This document shows positions 5,105 through 45,784 of a stretch of 64,000 nt of DNA, in pieces (the first letter of the stretch is position 1; the number at the start of each line of letters is the position of its first letter). The stretch is from assembly GCA_049510395.1 (NCBI GenBank), contig JBEKYY010000016.1, forward strand, positions 3,095-67,094. The letters are read 5' to 3'. Below the pieces are notes generated by a model, which was given only the letters and a program-made list of their open reading frames with translations, was not told the DNA's origin and made no database searches. The stretch comes from Verrucomicrobiota bacterium (GTDB lineage: Bacteria > Verrucomicrobiota > Verrucomicrobiia > Limisphaerales > UBA11358). Made by a program: the position numbers and the translations under genes.

Positions 5105-7471
5105 ATGGGTTTTGATGCCAATCAACCTTCGCACCGTCAATTTCGAGAAACATTGAAGCAACGCACTGTGCCTGTGGTGGTTTGGGCTGGCGGTGGATTG
5201 AGTGCGCCTTCTGGATTGCCAAATTGGATTCAACTTCAAACGTTTTTGACGAACCGAGCGGTTGACAAGCAAGGAAGAGTAGACACAGCAGCTAGCGAAA
5301 TAATTCAGGCACATCTCAAATTAGCTCATAGCGAAAAATCGGCTTGGAAGAAATTTCAGCACCTTAAAAACGCACTTGGGAACACAGATTACACAAGTGC
5401 AATTCACGAAGCCTTTCAAGACGCCGGCAAAGCGACAATTCCGAACTTATATCTTCAATTGTGGGAACTTGGAATCAATGGTTTTTTTACTTTGAACATC
5501 GACCGTCTTGCCTCACGTGCGTTTAGCACGAGGACCCCGGGCGGTGTTTTAAGGGAATTTGAGGGGGGTAACTCACAAAGGCATGCAGACGTTTTTCTTT
5601 CTGGTCAAAAGTTTGTAGTTAATCTTCATGGAAGTATTGACGACGCGCAAAGTTGGATATTCACTGAGTCGGACTTCGAAACGTTAAGCAAAAATCCAGG
5701 TTATGATAAACTTGTGAGTGCTTGTTTTACGTCCCGTATAGTTCTGTTTGTCGGCATTTCGGCGGATGATCAAGCGGCGGGTGGCCATTTGGAAAAATTT
5801 AGGAAGCTTGGAATAAATTTAACCAATCACTTCTGGCTTACACATAAAAATGACGCGGGGACAGTTCGTTGGGCGGGAGACGTGGGGTTGAATTTAATTT
5901 TTTACGAGGCCCGAGGCGAAGATCATTCAGATATCAACGGTTTTGTTAAAGATCTCTCGCTATACATTCCGCAGGACCAAGTGCCACCACCAGTAGAACC
6001 TCCCTCGAAGAGGGAAGGCAGCTCAATTCTTCCTGCTGACGAACTTGAGCGACAACCAGCGAATAAAATTCGAATGGCTCTAAACAACGAGGCTAAAAGA
6101 ATTCTTTCATCAAACAGTGTGGCAAAAATCACGGAATATGATAAGTTTTTGTCAGAGTATGGCGAAGCCGTTTACCGTGCTTGGTCAATGAGCGTCACAC
6201 CGCAAAAAAACCTTTTTTTCAATTATTCCCTTAAACGCGTAATAGCGAAAGGTGCATTCGGTCAGGTTTTTGAAGCGATTGCGCAGGACGGAAAACACGT
6301 TGCCATTAAAATATTGCATGGCGATGTTCGCGAAGAGCCGGGTATGTTGATTAGCTTTCGTCGTGGTGTTCAGTCGATGCGAATACTTTCCGACCGTCAT
6401 GTTCCGGGAATGGTGCCATACCTTGAAGCTTGGGAGATTCCAACAAGTTCTGTTATGGAATTGGTCGATGGCCCCAACCTTGAAGATGCGGTAAGCGCGA
6501 ATTACGCTAATGATTGGGAAACACGCATGCGAATTGCTGCTGAATTGACAAAAATCATTCGCACGGCTCATAGCGTTCCAGAGCGTGTTCTTCATCGAGA
6601 CATTCGTCCTGCGAACATCATGTTAAAGGGTTATTACGACCAGACAGTCCCTTGGAAAGTAGTTGTATTGGATTTTGACCTTTCATGGCATCGCGATGCA
6701 GCAGAGGGAAGTTTAAATTTAGCGACCTCCTCCAATGGCTATTTATCGCCTGAATAAATTGATCCTTCGCGAAAGAAGTTAACTCGTAATGCGCTTGTCG
6801 ATTCGTATGGAATTGGGATGACGGTTTTTTTCCTGATTACAGGGAAACACCCTAAAGTGGGACAACATCTCTACGCCAACTGGGGTAAATTGCTCGCTGA
6901 AAAAGTTTGTTCAATTAGGTGTGTATTTTGGAATTCCTTACCATGTAGAATGGCTAGATTAATAGATTGGTCGACAAAAGATAACCAATCTGAACGTTGG
7001 GATGTGACAAGAATACATGGTGAATTGATTAGGCTTTCAGAGACTCAAAAGGGAGCGAGTTACGTTACATCGGCCGAAATGTTTGCTGAAGAAATTGTGG
7101 CTCGCTGTTCCGAGTTAGTTTCAATTTATACGTGGGACGACCAAAAGCTCTCTGCGTTGTCCGAATTGAGATCAGGTTTTACAATCCGTGTGGTTGGTGA
7201 TGAGTCTGAAAAGAGAGTTGAGGTTTATATCGACTGGATGCAGACAGGTGAGCGCAAATATGAAAACGTAAGAAAGTATATCGATACTGCCGCAGAAAAA
7301 AGTTGTTCGCGTCTCAAGAAAGGAGCGTGGAAAATATCACGTCGAGGGATTGCTCTTGGTGAGTGCCACATTGAGGCAGAAATAACTATTCCCGAATTGC
7401 GAAAGCCGGGACTTTTGGATGCTGCAGCGACTAGTCTAAACGAATCCATCTCCGCACTGCATTTTGGTTAA
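5105..7471 (+). pseudogene. SIR2-like (SIR2_2-type) domain fused to a Ser/Thr protein kinase domain and an unknown C-terminal domain; interrupted by one in-frame TAA at 6755..6757
   Basis: ORFs 5105..6757 and 6818..7471 are in the same frame. Reading through gives ...GYLSPE*IDPSRKKLTRNALVDSYGIGMTVFFLITGKHP, so the stop falls between kinase subdomain VIII (SPE=APE) and IX (DxxxxG). SIR2 blocks are VVWAGGGLSAPSGLPNW, FTLNIDRL, NLHGS and LFVGISADD. Kinase blocks are AKGAFGQV, VAIKIL, HRDIRPANIM and LDFDLS. G+C is markedly lower than in the flanking genes. Confidence 0.7.
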
Positions 7472-7479
7472 GTTAATAT

Positions 7480-8691
7480 TCAAGTTTTCGAAACTTGCTC
7501 GACCTCGTATCGGATTTCGTTTTTGAATCTGTCTACACCCTGGCCAAACGCGGCGGAGATGGGCAGCAACGAAACTTTGCGAATCTTCTTTTTGAACTGC
7601 TTCAAATTCTTTTCGGCCACCACCTCATCCATTTTGTTCGCAACCACCAGGCGCGGTCTTTCAAGCAACGCCGGGTCATAAAGTTCCAATTCGTTGAGCA
7701 ATTGTTTGTAATCGTCCCACGGCGCGCGGTTGTCCGTGCCCGCCATGTCGAGCAGCAGCACGAGGATTTTGCAACGCTCGATGTGCCGCAAAAAAGCGTG
7801 GCCGAGGCCGACATTACGGTGCGCGCCCTCGATCAAGCCCGGCACGTCACAGACCGTGAGCCGGTGCCAGTCGGCATATTCCACGATGCCGATTTGCGGG
7901 TGCAGCGTCGTGAACGGATACGGCGCAACTTTCGGGCGCGCCTTGGAAATGGCTGTGAGCAGCGTGGACTTGCCCGCGTTCGGATAGCCGACCAGCCCGA
8001 CTTCGGCCATGATGCGCAGCTCCAACAGATAATCGCCTTCCTCGCCCGGCTCGCCTGGCTGGGCGAAACGCGGCGTCTGGCGCGCGGCCGTCGCAAAGTT
8101 CCGGTTGCCCAATCCGCCGCGACCGCCTTTGCACAAAACAAATCGCTGGCCATGTTGGGTGAGGTCGGTGACCAGTTCGCCTTTTTCCTGATTGCCGGCG
8201 GAAGATTCTCCGGTGTTTTCCTGGCTCAAATCAATTTCTTGAGCCATGATTCCGCTCGCGCTGCGGATTAAAGGCCGCCGGCTCGCGCTGGTGGCAAACA
8301 AAGAAGATGACGACCCCTCGCCCTGTCCCTCTCCCCGTTTGGCGGGGAGAGGGTGGCCTTCAGGCCGGGAGAGGGGATTTTCTCCAACGCCGCCGGCCAA
8401 CCGCCAAACCAGCGTGCCGCATGGCACTTTGATGACGAGGTCCTTGCCCGCGTGGCCGTCCATGCCCTTGCCCATGCCCGCCTCGCCGGCCGGGGCGATG
8501 AGGCGCGGCTGATAATACTGGGCGATGAGGTTGTTGAGATCGTGGTCGGCCTGCAAAATCACGCTGCCGCCGCGCCCGCCGTTGCCGCCGCTGGGGCCGC
8601 CCTTGGCGACGTAAGCCTCGCGATGGAACGCGACACAGCCTTTGCCGCCGTGCCCCGCGCTCGCGTAAATTTTGATCTCGTCAACAAACAT
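7480..8691 (-). CDS. obg: GTPase Obg/CgtA with a roughly 75-aa insertion in the Obg fold
   Basis: MFVDEIKIYASAGHGGKGCVAFHREAYVAKGGPSGGNGGRGGSV, G1 motif GYPNAGKSTLL, and DVPGLIEGA. It follows rplU-rpmA in the conserved order. Confidence 0.95.
   Translation of the reverse strand: MFVDEIKIYASAGHGGKGCVAFHREAYVAKGGPSGGNGGRGGSVILQADHDLNNLIAQYYQPRLIAPAGEAGMGKGMDGHAGKDLVIKVPCGTLVWRLAGGVGENPLSRPEGHPLPAKRGEGQGEGSSSSLFATSASRRPLIRSASGIMAQEIDLSQENTGESSAGNQEKGELVTDLTQHGQRFVLCKGGRGGLGNRNFATAARQTPRFAQPGEPGEEGDYLLELRIMAEVGLVGYPNAGKSTLLTAISKARPKVAPYPFTTLHPQIGIVEYADWHRLTVCDVPGLIEGAHRNVGLGHAFLRHIERCKILVLLLDMAGTDNRAPWDDYKQLLNELELYDPALLERPRLVVANKMDEVVAEKNLKQFKKKIRKVSLLPISAAFGQGVDRFKNEIRYEVEQVSKT
8327..8353. repeat. 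family D hairpin CCCTCTCCCCG-TTTGG-CGGGGAGAGGG inside the obg coding sequence
   Basis: A perfect 11-bp inverted repeat with a 5-nt loop. The same hairpin (same loop) occurs at 45337..45363, and variants occur at 24023..24050, 24099..24125 and 45393..45420. Confidence 0.85.
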
Positions 8692-8697
8692 GCGCTG

Positions 8698-8730
8698 AAT
8701 TTACGATTGATGATTTACGATTTACGATTT
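8698..8730 (-). repeat. short tandem-repeat leader (AATCGTAAATC units) immediately upstream of the obg start
   Basis: The minus strand reads AAAATCGTAAATCGTAAATCATCAATCGTAAATTCAGCGC-ATG. A related motif sits upstream of the gene starting at 13245. Confidence 0.6.
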
Positions 8731-8786
8731 TCTAAAACCCGCCGTTTGACTGCAACCAATCATCAATCACCAATCATAAATCATAA

Positions 8787-8815
8787 ATAAAAAAGGCGAG
8801 GCGCGTGGCCTCGCC
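8787..8815 (-). terminator. rho-independent terminator after rpmA
   Basis: Stem GGCGAGGC/GCCTCGCC (8795..8802 / 8808..8815). On the minus strand it is followed by TTTTTT (the A-run on the + strand ending at 8794). Confidence 0.6.
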
Positions 8816-8835
8816 GTAAAATTCATCTGCGCCGG

Positions 8836-9096
8836 TCAATTCTTCGCGGCGGGTTCGGCCTTCACGTTCACGCGATGGCCGCCCTTGTCGAAGGCGATTT
8901 TGCCGTCCACCAGCGCAAAAAGCGTCCAATCGCGGCCCGTGCCGACATTTTCACCCGCCACGAACTTCGTGCCGCGCTGCCGGACGATGATGCTGCCGGC
9001 GGTGACCGCTTCGCCGCCGTACGTTTTCACGCCGAGCCGTTTGCTGACGCTGTCGCGGCCGTTGCGGACGCTGCCTTGCCCTTTCTTGTGTGCCAT
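8836..9096 (-). CDS. rpmA: 50S ribosomal protein L27
   Basis: [45 protein letters not shown]. Confidence 0.97.
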
Positions 9097-9100
9097 AAAA

Positions 9101-9130
9101 AGTTGATGGTTGAAAGTTGAGAGTTGAGAG
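9101..9130 (-). repeat. short tandem-repeat leader (CTCTCAAC units) immediately upstream of the rpmA start
   Basis: The minus strand reads CTCTCAACTCTCAACTTTCAACCATCAACTTTTT-ATG. A near-identical motif is upstream of pdxA (63323..63352). Confidence 0.6.
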
Positions 9131-9141
9131 CGTCCTTTGAA

Positions 9142-9453
9142 TTACGCCTTGATTTTCTTGATCTTGACCACCGTCAATTCCTGGCGATGTCCGATGGTTT
9201 TATGATAGCCCTCGCGGCGTATCATTTTGAAAGTAAGCTTTTTTTCGCCGCGCTTGTGCGCCACCACGTCGGCCAGCACGCTCGCGCCGCTGACCGTGGG
9301 GGTGCCGACCACGACCTTGCCGTCGCGATTGACCAGCAACACGCGGTCAAAGGTGACCGGCTTGCCGGTTTCGACGGCCAGACGTTCGATTTCCAGCGTG
9401 TCGCCCGCGGCGACTCGATATTGTTTGCTGCCTGTTTCTAGAACGGCGTACAT
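9142..9453 (-). CDS. rplU: 50S ribosomal protein L21
   Basis: MYAVLETGSKQYRVAAGDTLEIERL... from the ATG at 9453, inside the longer ORF 9142..9531. Confidence 0.95.
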   Translation of the reverse strand: MYAVLETGSKQYRVAAGDTLEIERLAVETGKPVTFDRVLLVNRDGKVVVGTPTVSGASVLADVVAHKRGEKKLTFKMIRREGYHKTIGHRQELTVVKIKKIKA

Positions 9454-9477
9454 AAATTGACCCGCAAAGGGCTGGAT

Positions 9478-9506
9478 ATTAAGCCAGAACTGTGCCGGGC
9501 TGTCAA
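9478..9506 (-). promoter_or_regulatory. candidate sigma70-type promoter for rplU-rpmA
   Basis: On the minus strand: TTGACA (9506..9501), a 17-nt spacer, then CTTAAT (9483..9478). It lies about 25 nt upstream of the rplU ATG. Confidence 0.35.
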
Positions 9507-9671
9507 CGCAGGATTTATTTGGAAATCGCATGATTCGTGTAGCGTCGAGCCTGTGGCTCGATTGAATTGGCGCACAACACCGGCGCTAAAAATCATGCTA
9601 AAAAGCAAGTATTTATTGTTTATCAATAAAAAAAACTTGACTAACGGAATTGATGGGCGTATTCGTTGCGC

Positions 9672-10193
9672 ATGAATGCGAATAAAATTTCTCCGAAGGC
9701 CAATGCGCGGATGAGTCGAATCAAAAAGATAATCAGGGTTATCAGGTTTTTGATCAGTGCAACCATAATTTTTGCGATCGTGTTTGGTTCGGTATTCTTG
9801 GCCGATCTCGCTGGCGTCCACATTATTCCGTCGGGAGTAAAAATCTCATTTTCCCCGTTGTTGACTTATAGTTCACCATTCAAGATACCGGTGGTCGTGC
9901 TTGTCCTGGCCTTTCTCCGTGCGGGCCTGTTTTTTGTGGGGGCTCTTGTCCTGTTCTGGCTGCTTGATCTCTTTGAGGCAGGGAAATTTTTCACCGGTCA
10001 AAATGTTCATTACATCAAACTGCTTGGCTGGTTTGTATTGAGTGACTGGGTGGTTCTTCGACTTCTGGATGTGCTGGCACATGGATTGAGCCCGGACCCG
10101 GTGGAACTTGCTGTTGGACTTCTCATTGTATTGATTGCCTGGATCATGGATGAAGGCCGGAAGATTCAGGAGGAACAGGAATTGACGGTTTAA
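9672..10193 (+). CDS. DUF2975-type multi-pass membrane protein
   Basis: Four hydrophobic spans and the C-terminal ...VLIAWIMDEGRKIQEEQELTV. It is immediately followed by a YozG-like HTH gene, which is the usual DUF2975 partner. Confidence 0.65.
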   Translation: MNANKISPKANARMSRIKKIIRVIRFLISATIIFAIVFGSVFLADLAGVHIIPSGVKISFSPLLTYSSPFKIPVVVLVLAFLRAGLFFVGALVLFWLLDLFEAGKFFTGQNVHYIKLLGWFVLSDWVVLRLLDVLAHGLSPDPVELAVGLLIVLIAWIMDEGRKIQEEQELTV

Positions 10194-12291: not shown

Positions 12292-12390
12292 GCGATGAAA
12301 TTAGAAGAAAATTCCCGCGTGGAAAACGTTAAAATGACAGGGCGGGCTCTTACCAGGACGCGTCTCATTTTTTGAACAGCTCCGAAAATT

Positions 12391-12540
12391 CTCATTAGCA
12401 CCGGGCTTCAGCCCGGTGATGACGGTCGAAAAACGTCGGGAAGCCGCTTCAACGGCTTCGGTATGCAGGGGAACCCGTTGAAACGGGTTTCATTCCCCAT
12501 GATCGCCGGGTTCACCCGGCTGAAGCCGGGTGCTAATGAG
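12391..12540 (+). repeat. family A MITE-like palindromic element (~150 bp), copy 1
   Basis: Terminal inverted repeats are ctcattagcaccgggcttcagcccggtga and tcacccggctgaagccgggtgctaatgag. Internal hairpins are gaagccgcttcaacggcttc and aacccgttgaaacgggtt. It has no coding capacity. Confidence 0.75.
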
Positions 12541-12564
12541 AGGCGTCCTTTTTTGCCGCCAATT

Positions 12565-23920: not shown

Positions 23921-24022
23921 GACAACATGTTAGCACACGGACGATTGTGCGCCAGCGTTTGCAGTTCCGGCTTCAGGCCGGTCTTGTCCTGGGAGCGCCC
24001 ACATCTTGACATTGCCCCGACT

Positions 24023-24125
24023 CCCTCTCCCCGCCTGAGCGGGGAGAGGGCTGGGGTGAGGGGATTTGATCTTGGAAACAACGGCCTCCTCACCCCGGCC
24101 CTCTCCTCCTTTGGGGAGGAGAGGG
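24023..24125. repeat. family D composite: two CCCTCTCC...GGAGAGGG hairpins flanking a GGGGTGAGGGG/CCTCACCCC inverted pair
   Basis: ccctctccccgc-ctga-gcggggagaggg (24023..24050) and ccctctcctcc-tttgg-ggaggagaggg (24099..24125), in the apbC/sufD divergent spacer. Confidence 0.8.
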
Positions 24126-24245
24126 AGAAAAGCGGAGCAGCGTGCGGATACGTCCGGATTAAGATTAGGACGAACCACAGACTTGCGCCATTGTGCCGGG
24201 CATGGGAAATTGAAGGTCTAATTTATAAAATTGGGCAATTAAATC

Positions 24246-29932: not shown

Positions 29933-32900
29933 ATGCGCTTCGTAAGCAGAACATTGCCGATGCTCGTTGGTGCGGGTAAAACAAGTGACGCCAGCAAACG
30001 ATTCAGTGTCGGAGCTTTAGTAGTTCTGTTTCTCTTTTCCGCGACTCCGGTCCGGTCAGCAGAAAGACAATTGCTTCGCAATCACATTCCTGCAGTCACT
30101 TCGAAATTGCGGCCGGTGGACCGACTCGCAAGCTCGAAGCGTTTAAATCTTGTATTTGCGCTGCCGCTGCGCAACCAAAAGGCACTCACCAATCTGCTCC
30201 AGCAACTCTACGATCCGACGAGTTCCAATTACCGACAGTACCTGACGCCGCAGCAGTTTGCCGAGAGGTTTGGACCGACCGAACAAGACTATCGCGCTGT
30301 CATGGATTTTGTGAGAGCGCAGGGTTTGACTGTGACCGGAACACATCCCAACCGCACATTGTTGGACGTGAGCGGAACGGTTGCGGAAATCGAAAGTGCA
30401 TTTCATGTCAACCTGGTGGTTTACAATCACCCGATCGAAGCCCGGACGTTTTATGCACCGGATGTTGAACCTTCGATCGACCTGACGGTTCAAGCATTGG
30501 AGGTGGTGGGCCTCGATGATTATGTTATGCCGCGTCCGATGTACCACCAAATGGCAACTCCCCTTGTGCAAGCCAATGAGACGAAGCCCAACGTCGGCTC
30601 AGGACCTGGCGGGACATTTATGGGCAACGATTTCCGGGCAGCCTACATTCCGGGCATTGCGCTCACTGGCTCAGGGCAGAAGGTTGGCCTGTTAGAATTT
30701 GATGGATACTTTACCAATGATCCAGTCCAATATGCGATCCAAGCCGGTCTGACGAACATTCTGACGATCACCAATGTGCTGGTGGACGGATTCGACGGCA
30801 CCCCTGGTTCCTACAATGTTGAGGTTGCCTTGGATATCGAAATGGTCATGTCCATGGCTCCGGGAGCTCAGATTATCGTCTATGAAGGTTCCATCACCAC
30901 ACCAACAATTATCATAGATCTCTTGAACCGTATGGCGACCGATAATCTGGCCCAGCAATTGAGCGCTTCCTGGACGTATCATACGGGGCCGGCGATGGAG
31001 CAGGTTTTTCAGCAAATGGCAGGGCAAGGACAATCGTTTTTTAATTGTTCCGGAGATCATGATGCTTACAGCGGAACAGTAACCACGCCGGCGGATGACC
31101 CGTATATCACAATCGTAGGGGGGACGACTTTGACGACCAGCGGGCCTGGAAGCAACTGGGTGTCAGAAACCTGCTGGAACTGGGGCAACGACATTGGAAG
31201 TGGCGGTGGAATCAGTACAAGCTGGGCAATTCCGTCATGGCAACAAGGCATTAATATGTCGAGCAATAATGGTTCAACGACCATGCGGAACCTCCCTGAC
31301 GTTGCGATGGTGGCGGACAGGGTTTATGCCATCGCCGACAACGGCGCGCCGCAGTATCTGGGCGGCACAAGCATTTCGACTCCGCTCTGGGCAGCGTTTA
31401 CGGCGTTGGTCAATGAGAAGGCGGGGCTTCAAGGCAAGCAACCGGTCGGTTTTGTCAATTATGCCCTCTACGCCATTGGCCAAGGAACGAATTACAACAC
31501 GGCATTCCACGACATTACGACCGGCAACAACACAAACAGCAACAGTCCAAACAACTTTTTCGCCGTGCCAGGCTACGACCTTTGCACAGGTTGGGGAACC
31601 CCGACACCAAACTTGATTGATGCCATGCTCAACGTCCAGTTCGTCATTCCAAATGGCTGGACACTAACGAGCCTGCCAAATGAAGATTGGTCTGGCGTCG
31701 CCTCTTCAGCAGACGGCACTAAGTTGGTTGCAGTAGACTTGTCTGGAGGACATCAGATCTATGTCTCGTCTTCATCAGGAGTGATTTGGCGGCCCTATGG
31801 GCCGGCAGCAAGCTGGCGCGGAATTGCCTCCTCCGCCGACGGAACTAAATTGGCCGCGGCACCGTGGTATGGCTCCATTTACATCTCGACAGATTCCGGT
31901 GTCACATGGACAGCGACGACTTCACCTTCCTATTCGTGGCGTTCGATGGCCTCTTCGGCCGATGGAACCAAATTGGCTGCGGGGGCATTCTGGGAAGGGG
32001 TTTTTGAAGTTTCGACCAATTCAGGTGCAACTTGGATGGCATCCAGCATGTCTGGCAGTATAAATTGGATGCCAGTCGCTTGGTCAGCAGACGGCGGCGT
32101 GTTGGTGGCTGCTTGTGGTAGTACGGTTTATGTATCAACCAATTCAGGCGCCACAAGCAGGTCAACTACCTTGCCGGGAATGAATTGTACATCTGTGGCT
32201 TCGGCGGCGGATGGCTCCAAACTGTTTGCTGCTGGAGGTTCCATTTACATATCCACAAACCTGGGGGCGAGTTGGACAATTTCCGGGCCCGCTTCCGGGG
32301 CGGGATTAGTGGCGTGTTCCGGAGATGGCTACAGACTTGCAGCCGTATCGGACCAAGTTTACATTTCAGACGATGGAGGGACAACTTGGACGTGTGTCGG
32401 ACCACGAACGCCCCCCACATATATGAGTTGGTCGACGATCGCCTGTTCTGCTGATGGAAGCAGATTAATCGCGGCAATAGAGGATTATTATGATGGGCCG
32501 GTTTACACAGGCGTGTTTCCCCGAAGTGGACCAATCATCACGACGCCCCCCGCCAATCAGGCGGCCGTCGTCGGCAGCGACGCGGTGTTCAGTGTGGTTG
32601 CCATTGGCCCTCCGCCTTTGACTTATCAGTGGAGTTATAACGGAACAAATATTTTGGGTGCCACCAACAGTTGGTTAATCTTGACCAATGTGCAATTCAG
32701 CCAAGCCGGCTATTACGGTGTGCAAGTGAATGACGTTTATGGTTCACGTTTCAGTCCCAACGTGGCGCTGACGGTTGTTCCACCGCCGGTAACAATTCTG
32801 GTCCAGCCGACAAATCAAACAGCGGTTCTGGGCACCGCAGTGCGTTTCACCGTTACCGCGCTCGGCACGCCGCCGTTGAGTTACCAATGGTTGTTCAACG

Positions 32901-35458
32901 GCACGAACATGGCTGGGGCGACAAATAGTGAGCTGATGCTTTTCAATGTCCAACCGACCAACGCCGGCACGTACGCCGTGACGGTAGCCAATGCGTATGG
33001 CCCAATCACCAGTTCCAATGCGGTATTGACGTTGATTTCACCAACGCCGTGTGCCGAGCCGCCCTCCGGGTTGATCAGTTGGTGGCAGGCGGAAGGCAAT
33101 GCCATCGATAGAATGGGAACCATCAACGGCTCGTTGGTCGGCAACACAACTTACGGTCCGGGTTTTATAGGTCAGTGCTTTGTTCTCGACGGCGACGGCG
33201 ATGCCATCACGCTGGGCAATCTCTCGAGCTTTGGGTTGCAGGTATTCACGGTTGAGATGTGGATCAAACGAACCAGCACAACGCTCAGTACTCAAAACGG
33301 AAGCAAGGCCTATCTGTTCGCCTTCGGTGGCGGCGAAGACGGATTTGGTCTATTTAACGATGGCACTCTATTCTTTCAAAGTGGCTGCTGTTACGGAACC
33401 GGGGCACCTGTCAACGATACGAATTGGCATCATGTGGCGGTGACCGCGACTGGCACTGGTGACACCATCTATATCGATGGAACAGTCAGGGGAGGTTCGA
33501 TGTGGCCGAAATCGTTCTCCTTAACCACCGTGGCCATCGGTGCGCGAGGGGACGCTACGGCCAACAGTTTTTACGGAGCGATTGACGAACCTTCGCTGTA
33601 CAATCGCGTGCTTTCCGACACTGAAATTCAATCCATTTACAATGCCGGTGTCTATGGCAAGTGTTTGTTGCCGGCTCCACCCTTTATTCTGTCCCAGCCG
33701 ACGAACCAGGCGGTGGAGGTGGGAAGCACGGCGACCTTTACGGTTGCTGTCGGAGGCATGCGGAAGTCGTTGAGTTACCAGTGGCAATTCAATGGAACAA
33801 ACATCGTTGGACAGACAAACGCCTCGCTGGTTTTGACCAACGTCCAATTTCCGGAAGCAGGCACTTACGCGGTGCTGCTAACCAACGCGTTTGGATCAAC
33901 AACCAGTTCCAGCGCAATACTAACCGTCTACGGTCTGCCGCCCGCCATAATCTCCCAGCCGACGAACCAGACGGTGGAGGGGGGCAGCACGGCGACGTTC
34001 GCAGTGGTCGCTGGCGGCACACATCCGTTAAGTTATCAGTGGAGTTGTAATGGCACGCACCTGACTGGGGCGACGAACGCCTCGCTGGTTCTAACCAACG
34101 TCCAACGGAGTCAAGCAGGCACTTACGCGGTGCTGGTGACCAACGCTTTTGGATCAACAACCAGTTCCAGCGCAATACTAACCGTCTACGGTCTGCTGCC
34201 CGCCATCATCTCCCAGCCGACGAACCAGACGGTGGAGGTGGGGAGCACGGTGACGTTCGCGGTCTTGGCTGGCGGCACACGTCCGTTAAGTTATCAGTGG
34301 AGTTGTAATGGTACGAACCTGACTGAGGCGACGGACGCCTCGCTGGTTCTGACTAACGTTCAACTGAGTCAAGAAGGCACTTACGTGGTGCTGGTGACCA
34401 ACGCTTTTGGTTCGATCCTCAGCTCTAATGCAGTGCTGACTGTCTCTCCCGGATATGTTAACACCGTGAACATTGGCACCTCAGCAACCGTGCGAACCAA
34501 TGGGTCGTCTGTTGGTCGAGGCACTGGACTGCTGGCTTCAAAAGATGTTGCGCCCAGAGGGTACCGGTTTGCACTCCTCACAAGTGCCACCGTAACACAA
34601 AGTGAACCAGCCAATATTCTTGATGCCCAGTGGCGATTCACCGGGGTTACGATGACCAACTTTATCTATTTCGGTTCCGTCAATGGTGGTGCTCATGTTC
34701 CGGCCAATTATTGGCATTACGGCCAGAGCAATGCGTTTGTCGTGGTAGGTTGGTCGGCCAACCTTGGAAGCAACTGGCTTACGATATCGAATGATGTGGC
34801 GACTGGTGCTTGGAATACCAGTGATGGCTGCAATGGTTATTTTGGCGTGTCGCCTATTGGTTATGGGATAGCTGGCCCACCCCCTCCGGAAATCGCATTC
34901 AGGATTTGGGGTAACACCAGTACTTCGGGAGTGCCGATAAATGTCCAATGGGATTTGTATGCCGTGGGAACACGACCTGTTATCTCTTCCCACCCAACGA
35001 ATCAAACGGTGGTGGTGGGAGGTGCGGCGACATTCACGGTGGTGGCTGGCGGCATGCTGCCATTGAGTTATCAGTGGCAATTTAACGGTGCCGACTTGTG
35101 CAACGACACAAACTTCTTTCTGACTTTCACTCATGCTCAGTCCACTAACGCCGGCTTTTATCAAGTTGTCGTGACCAACGTTTACGGGTCGGTGACGAGT
35201 TCAGTCGCCACGCTCAGCATTCTGGGGGTGCCGGTGTCTTTTAGCACGAGTGGAGAAGACATCCGATACATCAACGGCCAATTCCTCATCAAACTGATCG
35301 ACTTAACCGGCCAAGGACCGTTGGTAATGGAAACATCGACCAATCTGACAGATTGGTCCCCGATCTTCACCAACCCGGCCGCGTTTGGCGAAATCAAGTT
35401 CGCTGATCCTGTGGCGACTAACAACCCGCAACGATTTTATCGGGCGCTCGTTCGGTGA
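29933..35458 (+). CDS. giant secreted multidomain protein: pro-kumamolisin activation domain + S53 sedolisin peptidase + BNR/Asp-box beta-propeller + Ig-like repeats + LamG/ConA-like domain + C-terminal W...RFYR module
   Basis: Signal peptide from the ATG at 29933. YLTPQQFAERFGPTEQDY is the propeptide. LGGTSISTPLWAAF is the S53 Ser motif. The SSADGTKLxA unit recurs seven times, and five Asp boxes are present (STDSGVTW, STNSGATW, SDDGGTTW...). Six Ig-like units share the LSYQW..NGT...AGTYAV pattern. The LamG block is WHHVAVTATG...IDEPSLYNRVLSDTEI. Confidence 0.85.
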   Translation: MRFVSRTLPMLVGAGKTSDASKRFSVGALVVLFLFSATPVRSAERQLLRNHIPAVTSKLRPVDRLASSKRLNLVFALPLRNQKALTNLLQQLYDPTSSNYRQYLTPQQFAERFGPTEQDYRAVMDFVRAQGLTVTGTHPNRTLLDVSGTVAEIESAFHVNLVVYNHPIEARTFYAPDVEPSIDLTVQALEVVGLDDYVMPRPMYHQMATPLVQANETKPNVGSGPGGTFMGNDFRAAYIPGIALTGSGQKVGLLEFDGYFTNDPVQYAIQAGLTNILTITNVLVDGFDGTPGSYNVEVALDIEMVMSMAPGAQIIVYEGSITTPTIIIDLLNRMATDNLAQQLSASWTYHTGPAMEQVFQQMAGQGQSFFNCSGDHDAYSGTVTTPADDPYITIVGGTTLTTSGPGSNWVSETCWNWGNDIGSGGGISTSWAIPSWQQGINMSSNNGSTTMRNLPDVAMVADRVYAIADNGAPQYLGGTSISTPLWAAFTALVNEKAGLQGKQPVGFVNYALYAIGQGTNYNTAFHDITTGNNTNSNSPNNFFAVPGYDLCTGWGTPTPNLIDAMLNVQFVIPNGWTLTSLPNEDWSGVASSADGTKLVAVDLSGGHQIYVSSSSGVIWRPYGPAASWRGIASSADGTKLAAAPWYGSIYISTDSGVTWTATTSPSYSWRSMASSADGTKLAAGAFWEGVFEVSTNSGATWMASSMSGSINWMPVAWSADGGVLVAACGSTVYVSTNSGATSRSTTLPGMNCTSVASAADGSKLFAAGGSIYISTNLGASWTISGPASGAGLVACSGDGYRLAAVSDQVYISDDGGTTWTCVGPRTPPTYMSWSTIACSADGSRLIAAIEDYYDGPVYTGVFPRSGPIITTPPANQAAVVGSDAVFSVVAIGPPPLTYQWSYNGTNILGATNSWLILTNVQFSQAGYYGVQVNDVYGSRFSPNVALTVVPPPVTILVQPTNQTAVLGTAVRFTVTALGTPPLSYQWLFNGTNMAGATNSELMLFNVQPTNAGTYAVTVANAYGPITSSNAVLTLISPTPCAEPPSGLISWWQAEGNAIDRMGTINGSLVGNTTYGPGFIGQCFVLDGDGDAITLGNLSSFGLQVFTVEMWIKRTSTTLSTQNGSKAYLFAFGGGEDGFGLFNDGTLFFQSGCCYGTGAPVNDTNWHHVAVTATGTGDTIYIDGTVRGGSMWPKSFSLTTVAIGARGDATANSFYGAIDEPSLYNRVLSDTEIQSIYNAGVYGKCLLPAPPFILSQPTNQAVEVGSTATFTVAVGGMRKSLSYQWQFNGTNIVGQTNASLVLTNVQFPEAGTYAVLLTNAFGSTTSSSAILTVYGLPPAIISQPTNQTVEGGSTATFAVVAGGTHPLSYQWSCNGTHLTGATNASLVLTNVQRSQAGTYAVLVTNAFGSTTSSSAILTVYGLLPAIISQPTNQTVEVGSTVTFAVLAGGTRPLSYQWSCNGTNLTEATDASLVLTNVQLSQEGTYVVLVTNAFGSILSSNAVLTVSPGYVNTVNIGTSATVRTNGSSVGRGTGLLASKDVAPRGYRFALLTSATVTQSEPANILDAQWRFTGVTMTNFIYFGSVNGGAHVPANYWHYGQSNAFVVVGWSANLGSNWLTISNDVATGAWNTSDGCNGYFGVSPIGYGIAGPPPPEIAFRIWGNTSTSGVPINVQWDLYAVGTRPVISSHPTNQTVVVGGAATFTVVAGGMLPLSYQWQFNGADLCNDTNFFLTFTHAQSTNAGFYQVVVTNVYGSVTSSVATLSILGVPVSFSTSGEDIRYINGQFLIKLIDLTGQGPLVMETSTNLTDWSPIFTNPAAFGEIKFADPVATNNPQRFYRALVR
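33675..34450 (+). repeat. three tandem ~258-261-bp coding repeats (Ig-like units) inside the giant gene
   Basis: The units begin near 33675, 33938 and 34195 (..ISQPTNQTVE.GSTATFAV.AGGT.PLSYQWSCNGT...). Units 2 and 3 are nearly identical at the nucleotide level. Confidence 0.85.
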
Positions 35459-37918: not shown

Positions 37919-37972
37919 GCATGGAGGCGGGGCCTGCAGGTGCATCAAGCGCATCCCAATTTTTGCGTGTCT

Positions 37973-38124
37973 CTGATTAGCACCCGGCTTCAGCCGGGTG
38001 AAATCCAGTTATCATTTGGATTAAACCCGTTTCAACGGGTTTTCCCTCGCGCACAAAAGCCGTTGAAACGGCTTCCTGATGCTCTGCGACCGTCATCACC
38101 GGGCTGAAGCCCGGTGCTAATGAG
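37973..38124 (-). repeat. family A MITE-like element, copy 2 (opposite orientation to copy 1)
   Basis: ctgattagcacccggcttcagccgggtga ... aaacccgtttcaacgggttt ... aagccgttgaaacggctt ... tcaccgggctgaagcccggtgctaatgag. Confidence 0.75.
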
Positions 38125-38147
38125 AATGCTCCACTTTCCGAACAAAA

Positions 38148-44281: not shown

Positions 44282-45784
44282 ATGGCATCATTAAAATTGG
44301 TGGGCGGACAAAAACCAAGAGAAATCGCGGTGCGCGTTTTGCAACAACGACGCGCCGGGGGCAAATTCATTGAAGATTTGCTTGAAACCGCGCTGCATGG
44401 CGCGCAACTTTTGCCCGCCGACCGCGCGCTCTGTCAGGAAATCGTGTACGGCATCGTGCGCTGGCAGGCGACACTCGACTGGCTCATCGCTCGAAAAACA
44501 GATGGGCGCGAACAAAAGCCCGCCTTGCAAAACTTGTTGCGGCTCGGCCTCTACCAAATTTTTTGGCTCGACCGGATTCCCGACCATGCTGCCGTCAACG
44601 AAACCATCGAATTGGCCAAGCAGAATGGTTTTGGCGCCCAGGCCGGTTTTGTGAACGCTGTTCTGCGCGGCTACTTGCGCGAGCATGACGAAACCAAAAA
44701 ACTTCTGGCCGGATTAAAAATTTCGCAGCCCGCACTGGGCTGGTCGCATCCCAAAGGGCTGGTTGCCCGCTGGCAAAAGCGCTGGGGCATCGAAAAAACC
44801 GCGTCGCTTCTGGAATGGAACAACACACCGCCGAAAACCTTCGCGCGCGTCAACACGCTGAAATTTGGTAGGGCGGGCAGTCCCCTGCCCGCCGAACGCC
44901 AGCAAGCCGAGAGCGGCGCGCACGGAGTGACGCGCCCTACCTTGAAAGATGCCGGCGACCTGCTCACCCGCTGGCGCGATGAAGGCGTGGAATACGATTT
45001 CGTTCGGCGCGACTGGCTGGAGGAAAACCTGGTCTTTGAGATGAAGTCGCATCCGCCACTATCGTCGCTGGCGAGTTTTCGCGACGGCTGGTTTTACATT
45101 CAAGACCCCGGCACGCTGCTCGCCGTTTGCATGCTCGGACCGCAGCCCGGCGAAACGATTTTGGATTTCTGCGCCGCGCCCGGTGGCAAGACGACGTTCA
45201 TCGCGCAGTTGATGAACAACCAGGGCCGCATTGTCGCGCAGGACGTTTCGGATGAACGACTGAAATGGATCCAAGAAAATTGCCTACGACTGGGTGTCAC
45301 CTGCGTAGACACTTTCCTCAACACCCCTCACCCCGGCCCTCTCCCCGTTTGGCGGGGAGAGGGAGAAAAATCTGAAACCACGCAAAAACATTCCCTCTCC
45401 CCGCCCAGGCGGGGAGAGGGTGGTCCCCGTAAAGCGGGACCGGGTGAGGGGATCGAAAAATTCGACCGCGTCCTGGTGGACGCTCCGTGTTCCAACACCG
45501 GTGTAATGCGCCGCCGCGTGGATTTGCGCTGGCGGATCCAGTCGGAGGAAATCGAACGCCTCCGGGTCGTGCAACTGGATTTGCTCCAACAAGCCGCGAC
45601 CCAGGTGAAACCCGGCGGTGTTTTGGTGTACAGCACGTGCAGCCTGGAACCGGAGGAAAACGGCGGGGTTGTGAAGCAATTTTTAAGCGATCACACCGGG
45701 TTCAAATTGGAATCCGAGCGCGAGTTGCTGCCGTTTGTGGACAATGTGGACGGCGCTTACGTCGCGCGAATGAAAAAAGGGTAG
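44282..45784 (+). CDS. rsmB: 16S rRNA (cytosine967-C5)-methyltransferase RsmB/Sun carrying two in-frame repeat-element insertions
   Basis: The ATG at 44282 is inside the 1002-aa ORF, whose upstream part is the antisense of the greA-like gene. There is a NusB-like N-domain, then DFCAAPGGKT, FDRVLVDAPCSNTGVMRR and GGVLVYSTCSLEPEEN. Confidence 0.9.
   Translation: MASLKLVGGQKPREIAVRVLQQRRAGGKFIEDLLETALHGAQLLPADRALCQEIVYGIVRWQATLDWLIARKTDGREQKPALQNLLRLGLYQIFWLDRIPDHAAVNETIELAKQNGFGAQAGFVNAVLRGYLREHDETKKLLAGLKISQPALGWSHPKGLVARWQKRWGIEKTASLLEWNNTPPKTFARVNTLKFGRAGSPLPAERQQAESGAHGVTRPTLKDAGDLLTRWRDEGVEYDFVRRDWLEENLVFEMKSHPPLSSLASFRDGWFYIQDPGTLLAVCMLGPQPGETILDFCAAPGGKTTFIAQLMNNQGRIVAQDVSDERLKWIQENCLRLGVTCVDTFLNTPHPGPLPVWRGEGEKSETTQKHSLSPPRRGEGGPRKAGPGEGIEKFDRVLVDAPCSNTGVMRRRVDLRWRIQSEEIERLRVVQLDLLQQAATQVKPGGVLVYSTCSLEPEENGGVVKQFLSDHTGFKLESERELLPFVDNVDGAYVARMKKG
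44867..44941 (+). repeat. family B palindromic element (75 bp = 25 codons) inserted in frame in rsmB
   Basis: ggtagggcgggcagtcccctgcccgcc...ggcgcgcacggagtgacgcgccctacc, translated GRAGSPLPAERQQAESGAHGVTRPT. Confidence 0.8.
45324..45451 (+). repeat. family D composite element inserted in frame in the rsmB methyltransferase domain
   Basis: cccctcaccccgg + hairpin 45337..45363 + spacer + hairpin 45393..45420 + ...ccgggtgagggg. It is translated TPHPGPLPVWRGEGEKSETTQKHSLSPPRRGEGGPRKAGPGEG. Confidence 0.8.

Follow-up and report, generated by a model that had tools for sequence, protein, structure and literature searches.

An in-frame palindromic repeat within an older, order-wide insertion in the Obg GTPase of a Limisphaerales bacterium

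Introduction

How does a GC-rich palindromic repeat come to lie in frame inside an essential gene, and how much of the protein does it account for? The question is raised by obg, the essential gene for the GTPase Obg/CgtA, in a stretch of 64,000 nucleotides from a Verrucomicrobiota bacterium (contig JBEKYY010000016.1 of assembly GCA_049510395.1, positions 3,095 to 67,094; hereafter the window). An initial annotation had proposed that a single repetitive extragenic palindromic (REP)-like or MITE-like (miniature inverted-repeat transposable element) sequence entered a normally short surface loop of Obg and so supplied some 75 additional residues. Here we describe the anatomy of the repeat, its copy numbers and its in-frame carriage in several genes, along with the age and distribution of the loop in which it sits. 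The extra loop is made up of two parts of differing age: an older insertion found throughout the order, and one resident repeat that contributes 21 codons. We consider it likely that the repeat is tolerated selfish DNA, akin in behaviour to Rickettsia palindromic elements (RPEs), lodged in a permissive loop.

Results

The obg gene (7480..8691, minus strand) is an intact open reading frame (ORF) of 403 amino acids, identified by its Pfam domains (GTP1_OBG, PF01018, E 3e-53; MMR_HSR1, PF01926, E 9e-26), by Obg structures in the PDB (E 1e-96) and by tblastn. All Obg and G-domain motifs are intact and the frame is open from end to end. The GTP1_OBG match is broken into two stretches with the loop between them, and a custom hidden Markov model (HMM) of the N-terminal domain likewise matches in two stretches (residues 1-152 and 167-268); the genuine Obg fold ends near residue 96, although the first HMM stretch runs to 152. 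Aligned with Bacillus subtilis Obg (1LNZ), residues 1-95 correspond to 1-95 and residues 171-398 to 101-329, while residues 168-398 align to 1LNZ, 1UDX and 4CSU; a TRAFAC G domain follows the Obg fold. The extra segment noted in the initial annotation is therefore there at close to the length given: about 74 residues (97-170; 8182..8403, minus strand) stand in place of 5 in B. subtilis. These boundaries, between the strand ending at W96 and the strand starting at G171, come from the 1LNZ and 1UDX alignments and from an AlphaFold2 (AF2) model. Built from 45 sequences of 61-90% identity, the model has a mean predicted local distance difference test (pLDDT) score of 62 and is usable for the G domain and the loop-flanking strands only. 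It places strands at 93-97 and 173-177 on either side of the loop and predicts residues 102-167 without secondary structure, at a pLDDT of about 38-41, which fits a disordered surface loop. A model from 37 close sequences reached a mean pLDDT of 31.

Most of this loop is old. Some 50-55 of its residues belong to an insertion that is not repeat-derived and that is present in 79 out of 79 close orthologues (72-85% identity; metagenome-assembled genomes labelled Verrucomicrobiia, Limisphaerales or Pedosphaera) and in every one of the 17 families that make up the order (Limisphaerales/Pedosphaera-type Verrucomicrobia), with loops of 49-86 amino acids. Plain forms of the loop measure about 66-70 residues from W96 to the GELV strand, as against 74 in the Obg of the window, and six congeners without the strict hairpin described below (G005, G010, G013, G014, G020 and G023) keep both the long loop and its conserved core. 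Given this order-wide presence and its persistence in hairpin-free congeners, the bulk of the insertion is an order-level trait and owes nothing to the repeat. Contrary to what the initial annotation had supposed, then, orthologues from genomes that lack the repeat do carry a homologous insertion of similar length.

The two halves of the old insertion evolve differently. Its C-terminal half is conserved, reading ...KP.F.TSAS(K/R)RPLIRSASG..AQEIDLS...KGELVADLT, and orthologue alignments delimit a core at F132-S156 (FATSASRRPLIRSASGIMAQEIDLS; 8224..8298, minus strand). R139, P140, A150, E152, D154 and L155 are invariant among 37 close relatives; across the order E152 remains invariant and the other five are kept in at least 90% of sequences. 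The core is found in most families and is cut to A.E(I/Y)(D/N)L, or gone, in the most divergent ones (f2, f7, f10 and f17). The N-terminal half is hypervariable, usually an acidic tract (EDEDENEDEK), and probably disordered. Outside the order, 90 other genomes of the phylum encode the two halves of Obg either directly adjoining or with no more than about 25 codons between them. Among diverse Obg representatives 56 of 84 have fewer than 10 residues beyond the flanking motifs, and in a library clustered at 50% most of the 150 Obg representatives lack the loop or have one of at most about 25 amino acids, with residues 168-172 of our protein aligned to their 97-103. The earlier statement that most Obg proteins are short at this point thus holds.

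An internal duplication was considered as a source of the old loop, hints of it being that HMMER extends the N-domain profile into the insertion and that FATSASRRP resembles the downstream FATAARQTP. A profile-profile comparison returned only 9 aligned columns (P = 0.087, probability 0.7%) and gave the idea no support.

The repeat element itself occupies 63 nt (8314..8376, minus strand), as defined by the strict compact repeat pattern and by its fold. It starts on a codon boundary within the hypervariable part of the loop and encodes exactly 21 codons (P106-G126, PLSRPEGHPLPAKRGEGQGEG); it is these 21 codons, rather than the entire extra segment of about 75 residues, that can be traced to a repeat. 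The element folds as a three-way junction (-50.3 kcal/mol, z = -4.85) in which an outer stem of 10 bp, with arms CCCCTCGCCC (8314..8323) and GGGAGAGGGG (8367..8376), encloses two hairpins. Hairpin 1, at 8327..8353, is an 11-bp perfect stem with a 5-nt loop (CCCTCTCCCCG-TTTGG-CGGGGAGAGGG); the 27-nt match is exact, as the initial annotation had it, and where dinucleotide shuffles of the window predict 0.00 occurrences of the stem pattern (any 5-nt loop, at most two mismatches) we found 2. Hairpin 2 follows at 8355..8366; its plus-strand sequence is GGCC-TTCA-GGCC, which in the mRNA becomes GGCC-TGAA-GGCC. Set against relatives free of the element, the window's obg (labelled WIN; its genome, G000) is missing the acidic tract, and the element is therefore a replacement rather than a clean addition. 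Within the comparison of 79 orthologues the hairpin-derived peptide occurs only in WIN, in L006 (from genome G132) and, in variant form, in L004; the same repeat peptide is seen in 11 other cluster representatives of Obg.

Two further observations concern the sequence next to the element. Read on the coding strand, the SSSS codons that come right after it (8302..8313; TCGTCATCTTCT) correspond, as reverse complement, to codons like those of the acidic tract (AGAAGATGACGA); a small inversion of that old tract might have left this trace, or the match may be coincidental. In addition, HMMER aligns the repeat-derived AKRGEGQGEG and the following LFATSASRRPLIR (residues 106-152) to the glycine-rich GGRGGRGN...F.S....P segment of the Obg profile; a repeat peptide can therefore pass for an authentic motif and lead automatic annotation to extend domains too far.

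The obg copy is one member of a dispersed family. In the 3.46-Mb genome there are 78 hairpins with the base CCCTCTCC...GGAGAGGG, their inner stems varying with compensatory changes, and an alignment of genomic copies shows hairpin 1 to be a module of several larger elements. The compact type consists of an outer stem (CCCCTCNCCC / GGGNGAGGGG), a small hairpin 2, for which most copies have GTCC-TGC-GGAC, hairpin 1 with the form CCCTCTCCCCG-loop-CGGGGAGAGGG, and a 3-nt spacer; the strict compact pattern recovers 18 genome copies, 12 of them 62 nt long. A semi-conserved CRCG follows the 3' end of compact copies, and there is a suggestion that the true compact unit may be 66 nt, or 22 codons, which would explain how the genic copies of nominally 62 nt are in frame. 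Numbers differ sharply among close relatives: the strict hairpin is present 29 times in G000, 0-12 times in 24 congeners, and not at all in 15 of these 24.

Many copies reside in genes. Counting hairpins genome-wide, as genic or intergenic, places 22 of the 78 in frames that are open for at least 100 amino acids on both sides, and in 9 of 10 ORFs tested Pfam domains flank the element or are split by it. These nine carriers encode an RlmI-like methyltransferase, TilS, an HrpB-like helicase, TsaD, AceE, MutS, HemA, UvrD and RimO/MiaB; in the tenth, which is CCA-adding/poly(A)-polymerase-like, the match to the RNA-binding domain stops at the element. A further carrier is rsmB, where two family hairpins (45337..45420, plus strand) lie in frame and split the Pfam domain Methyltr_RsmB-F into two stretches. 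The initial annotation had reported the same hairpin as in obg twice in rsmB and in the spacer between the apbC and sufD genes. The first rsmB copy is indeed the identical 27-mer (45337..45363); the second (45393..45420) and the two in the ApbC/Mrp-like - SufB/D spacer (24023..24050 and 24099..24125, together a twin-hairpin member spanning 24023..24125) are variant members of the family. The genic share of hairpins accordingly lies between a sixth (13 Pfam-confirmed) and 28% (all 22 with long open frames). Were insertion blind, a typical bacterial genome, with its dense coding, would by our own estimate show a far larger share; for REPs the usual share is far smaller.

The twin-hairpin element in the spacer, at about 23990..24160, is one of about ten larger elements of 130-200 nt that share ends resembling GCGCAACTTGACAC / GTGTCAAGTTGCGC; with shared ends of this kind, hairpin 1 is best seen as a module reused by several element types.

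The site that the repeat occupies in Obg has accepted other sequences too. Of the 120 Obg proteins nearest to this one, about 64 have a plain acidic variable tract, 12 hold this repeat there and about 38 hold EPSSLHSAAPRDE, with a few carrying other sequences. The EPSSLHSAAPRDE insert, which also has an expanded form (SSLHFRLRTASPRQAAAPRDE), is itself a dispersed repeat: 5-9 copies were found in three of four genomes searched and 1 in the fourth (G135), with 0 for a reversed-pattern control. Unrelated Obg lineages carry inserts of 30-176 amino acids, mostly acidic, in the same beta-hairpin turn. In another family of the order, the obg of G028 (L101:1030-2343) contains the same element at the same junction, with hairpin 1 partly decayed, and has about 110 nt more, including the palindrome ATGTTGCATATGCAACAT, nested before the 3' outer stem, bringing its loop to about 116 amino acids. 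Presence of the family does not entail presence in obg, since three hairpin-rich congeners (G019, G011 and G003) have none there.

The core of the EPSSLHSAAPRDE repeat, CCGTCTTCGYTACACTCCGCCGCGCC, was seen in L002, L015, L050 and G000 (e.g. C4:253-278 and C23:95638-95663); G000 has 7 copies, none of them in its obg.

Did the repeat enter obg once or several times? It is possible, if somewhat doubtful in our view, that the sub-loop is an insertion hot spot at which the WIN/L006 group, L004 and G028 each acquired their own resident repeat independently. Each obg copy bears the hairpin-1 variant of its own genome: in L004 hairpin 1 is CCCAT-CCG-ATGGG, as in 9 of the 17 copies in that genome; the TCGGA loop in G028 is that of its 13 resident copies; and in WIN the CCAAA loop belongs to an exact 27-mer that ties with one other as the most frequent in G000 (4 copies each). 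A DNA tree with the loop masked puts WIN and L006 in separate well-supported clades of element-free genes, and the second, unrelated repeat family occupies the very same sub-loop. Loop-masked protein and DNA trees are poorly resolved overall, and their well-supported branches force at least two gains or losses. Against independent acquisition, all obg copies lie in one orientation, begin at a common 5' junction (AAT followed directly by CCCCTC) and have lost the acidic tract, and an approximately unbiased (AU) test does not reject a single clade for the element-bearing genes (p = 0.09). Moreover, a hairpin-2 variant whose loop is 4 nt long (GGCCYGAAGRCC) is common to WIN and L006; it is found just once in G000, as the obg copy, and just once in G132. 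Being found once per genome, this variant suggests that the copy is older than the split between the two, and it points to orthology combined with gene conversion of hairpin 1. We hold, loosely, to a history of one old insertion shared by the WIN/L006 group, which was followed by losses or allele exchange and by homogenisation of hairpin 1 with the resident copies; L004 and G028 may owe their copies to separate events.

The remaining features of the neighbourhood bear on the setting of the gene. On the minus strand rplU, rpmA and obg lie in a row, with rplU and rpmA (L27; 8836..9096, minus strand, an ORF whose identity was read from its translation) directly upstream of obg, a conserved arrangement. 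Between rpmA and obg there is a strong terminator-like hairpin, GGCGAGGCC-ACGCG-CCTCGCC followed by TTTTTTATTT (8795..8815, minus strand), so that obg may be partly uncoupled from rplU-rpmA transcription; the same spacer (8692..8835) has AT-rich short tandem motifs (AATCGTA-like and TGATT-like). Convergent with obg are an ORF of 550 amino acids (5105..6757, plus strand), in which Pfam finds a SIR2_2 domain fused to a protein kinase domain, and after it an ORF of 217 amino acids without a Pfam match (6818..7471, plus strand); the two could be a defence-type gene pair. Elsewhere in the window, a long array of 258-nt (86-codon) direct repeats with 60-92% identity (families D1, D2 and D4; 32500..35100) presumably encodes a repetitive domain protein.

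Discussion

We think it likely that obg of this bacterium has accommodated a piece of selfish DNA. On this reading an old insertion of about 50-86 amino acids occupies the point where a beta-hairpin of the Obg fold turns. In this species and some relatives its hypervariable half holds one resident GC-rich palindromic repeat, here in place of the acidic tract. The repeat would be tolerated because it is stop-free in the frame that is read, has a length that is a multiple of three, encodes a floppy peptide rich in Pro, Gly and Glu, and falls in a permissive loop. More generally, it may be selfish or neutral DNA whose genic copies persist only at sites that the protein tolerates. The family is dispersed, its copy number is uneven among close relatives and many copies lie in frame in housekeeping genes, and this is how an RPE-like element would be expected to behave. 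We infer that the repeat is mobile, that its peptide is unstructured and does no harm, and that the element itself performs no function.

Several points weigh against this reading. The enzyme that moves the repeat was not found: G000 has four strong Y1 genes (IS200/RAYT-type, PF01797; C67:90208-90549, C16:18696-19040, C4:86044-86385 and C6:13501-13845), all flanked by other palindrome families, and neither motif, hairpin 1 or outer stem, comes within 700 nt of these genes. Nor is a target-site duplication visible in the flanks of the 18 compact copies, which are A-rich at 5' and have CRCG at 3' but contain no direct repeat. Because neither a mobiliser nor a target-site duplication was found, the argument for mobility comes solely from copy numbers that are patchy between genomes. 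Between orthologous copies in obg it is the loops that change and the stems that stay, which could mean selection on nucleic-acid structure rather than tolerance. Translation of the element and its retention in mature Obg are predictions, and the AF2 model is only moderately confident for the N-terminal domain. Finally, in a tree of 116 proteins the loop type clusters only weakly.

With respect to the Y1 genes, each of the four is bracketed by inverted copies of other palindromic repeats, including one that contains GTAG. The CACCCCGCTGAAGC type that flanks Y1 genes is also present in the window, at about 12390-12542 and 37971-38127, and the layout is REPtron-like.

Beyond repeated, independent insertion, discussed above, four other explanations deserve mention. 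One, to which we give little weight, would make the order-wide insertion a working module: its conserved RPLIRSASG..AQEIDLS core would serve in regulation or in contact with the ribosome (as an RxxS site for a basophilic kinase, say), an addition made by this order to an essential GTPase of ribosome assembly, and the adjacent hypervariable tract would be a standing "hairpin slot", refilled in frame time and again by resident palindromic repeats and kept like the resident copies by gene conversion via a targeted mechanism.

We judge it unlikely, too, that the hairpin is kept in obg as a working nucleic-acid structure that tunes the level of Obg by slowing ribosomes, by stabilising or attenuating the mRNA or by binding a protein. 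The three-way junction is very stable. From species to species the obg copies keep their stems and differ at loop positions, L004 showing compensatory changes, and the hairpin-2 variant of WIN and L006, which G000 has in obg only, appears to date from before the two split. Yet most orthologues do without the element or have an unrelated repeat or an acidic tract in its stead, congeners rich in the family have no obg copy, and stems are equally conserved in every intergenic copy. Searched against Rfam 15, the element matches no family (the region 7000..10000 has only two chance-level hits, neither of them on the element), and for a terminator inside obg there is only a weak 5-bp site, site counts being no higher than in shuffles.

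The notion that one REP- or MITE-like element made the whole of the insertion on entering a normally short Obg loop, in favour of which stand the hairpin's place within the extra segment and the short loop of most Obg proteins, now appears very improbable: the element is only 63 nt long, and loops of similar length with the same core are found in element-free orthologues, in hairpin-free congeners and in every family of the order. We can put aside, as the least probable account of all, an assembly artefact or a decaying pseudogene, for although the assembly is a draft of 72 contigs and repeats can mislead assemblers, the frame is open with its motifs intact, the identical protein is on record from 16 contigs, the same peptide recurs in close homologues from other samples, and a single tblastn match in the assembly means that there is no second, uninterrupted obg to which this one, with its GC-rich palindromic repeat in frame, could be a non-functional paralogue.

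How does tolerated, RPE-like DNA compare with systems already described? RPEs are dispersed palindromic repeats, many of which lie in frame in unrelated and often essential genes; they sit where the fold tolerates them, their copy number differs between related genomes, and they measure about 100-150 bp and inhabit AT-rich, obligate intracellular Alphaproteobacteria (Ogata et al. 2000, 2002, as summarised in PMC10969869). The likeness to the present family is one of behaviour: palindromic, multi-copy and dispersed, with in-frame copies in several unrelated conserved genes. The element differs in being 62-66 nt long and very GC-rich, in forming a three-way junction of three short stems and in encoding a Pro/Gly/Glu-rich peptide, and its host is a free-living soil or peat Verrucomicrobium; we do not claim descent from RPEs, nor would a relation in sequence be expected.

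Intragenic REPs tagged GTAG or CGTC are short GC-rich stem-loops that are mostly intergenic, a minority lying in ORFs of repair and RNA-modification genes, and a verrucomicrobium, Opitutus terrae, is among their hosts (Di Nocera et al. 2013, PMC3733652). Unlike these, our element ends in CCCCTC.../...GAGGGG, is followed by CRCG at its 3' end and has no GTAG; and whereas REPs are single stem-loops or dimers, its unit is two hairpins inside an outer stem. It also departs from REPIN/RAYT systems (PMC3116915) in that none of the four Y1/RAYT-like genes is flanked by the family. With bacterial MITEs such as Nezha, Correia/NEMIS and ERIC (PMC10969869) it shares its small size, its non-coding nature, inverted ends (the 10-bp outer stem), multiple copies and some in-frame fusions, but it shows no target-site duplication and is shorter than most; no MITE-like parent insertion sequence with matching ends was seen, although no search was aimed at such parents. 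The loop as a whole resembles other lineage-specific expansions of Obg in using the same beta-hairpin turn, and differs from them in that the order-wide insert has a sequence-conserved core, RPLIRSASG..AQEIDLS, beside its variable tract.

These findings leave the established behaviour of such repeats unchanged. What they offer is a clear case, outside Rickettsia, of palindromic repeats surviving in essential genes, here those of a free-living Verrucomicrobium, with eleven carrier genes confirmed by Pfam that include obg, tsaD, mutS, uvrD, tilS and hemA (and also aceE and rsmB). They also carry a warning for annotation and phylogeny, in that the type of loop in Obg hardly follows the gene tree and that repeat-derived peptides (...PLP..RGEG.GEG... 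and ...SSLHSAAPRDE...) can make unrelated proteins look more alike than they are. The Obg loop found throughout the order, and the motif conserved in it, raise a separate small question about the control of ribosome assembly in this group.

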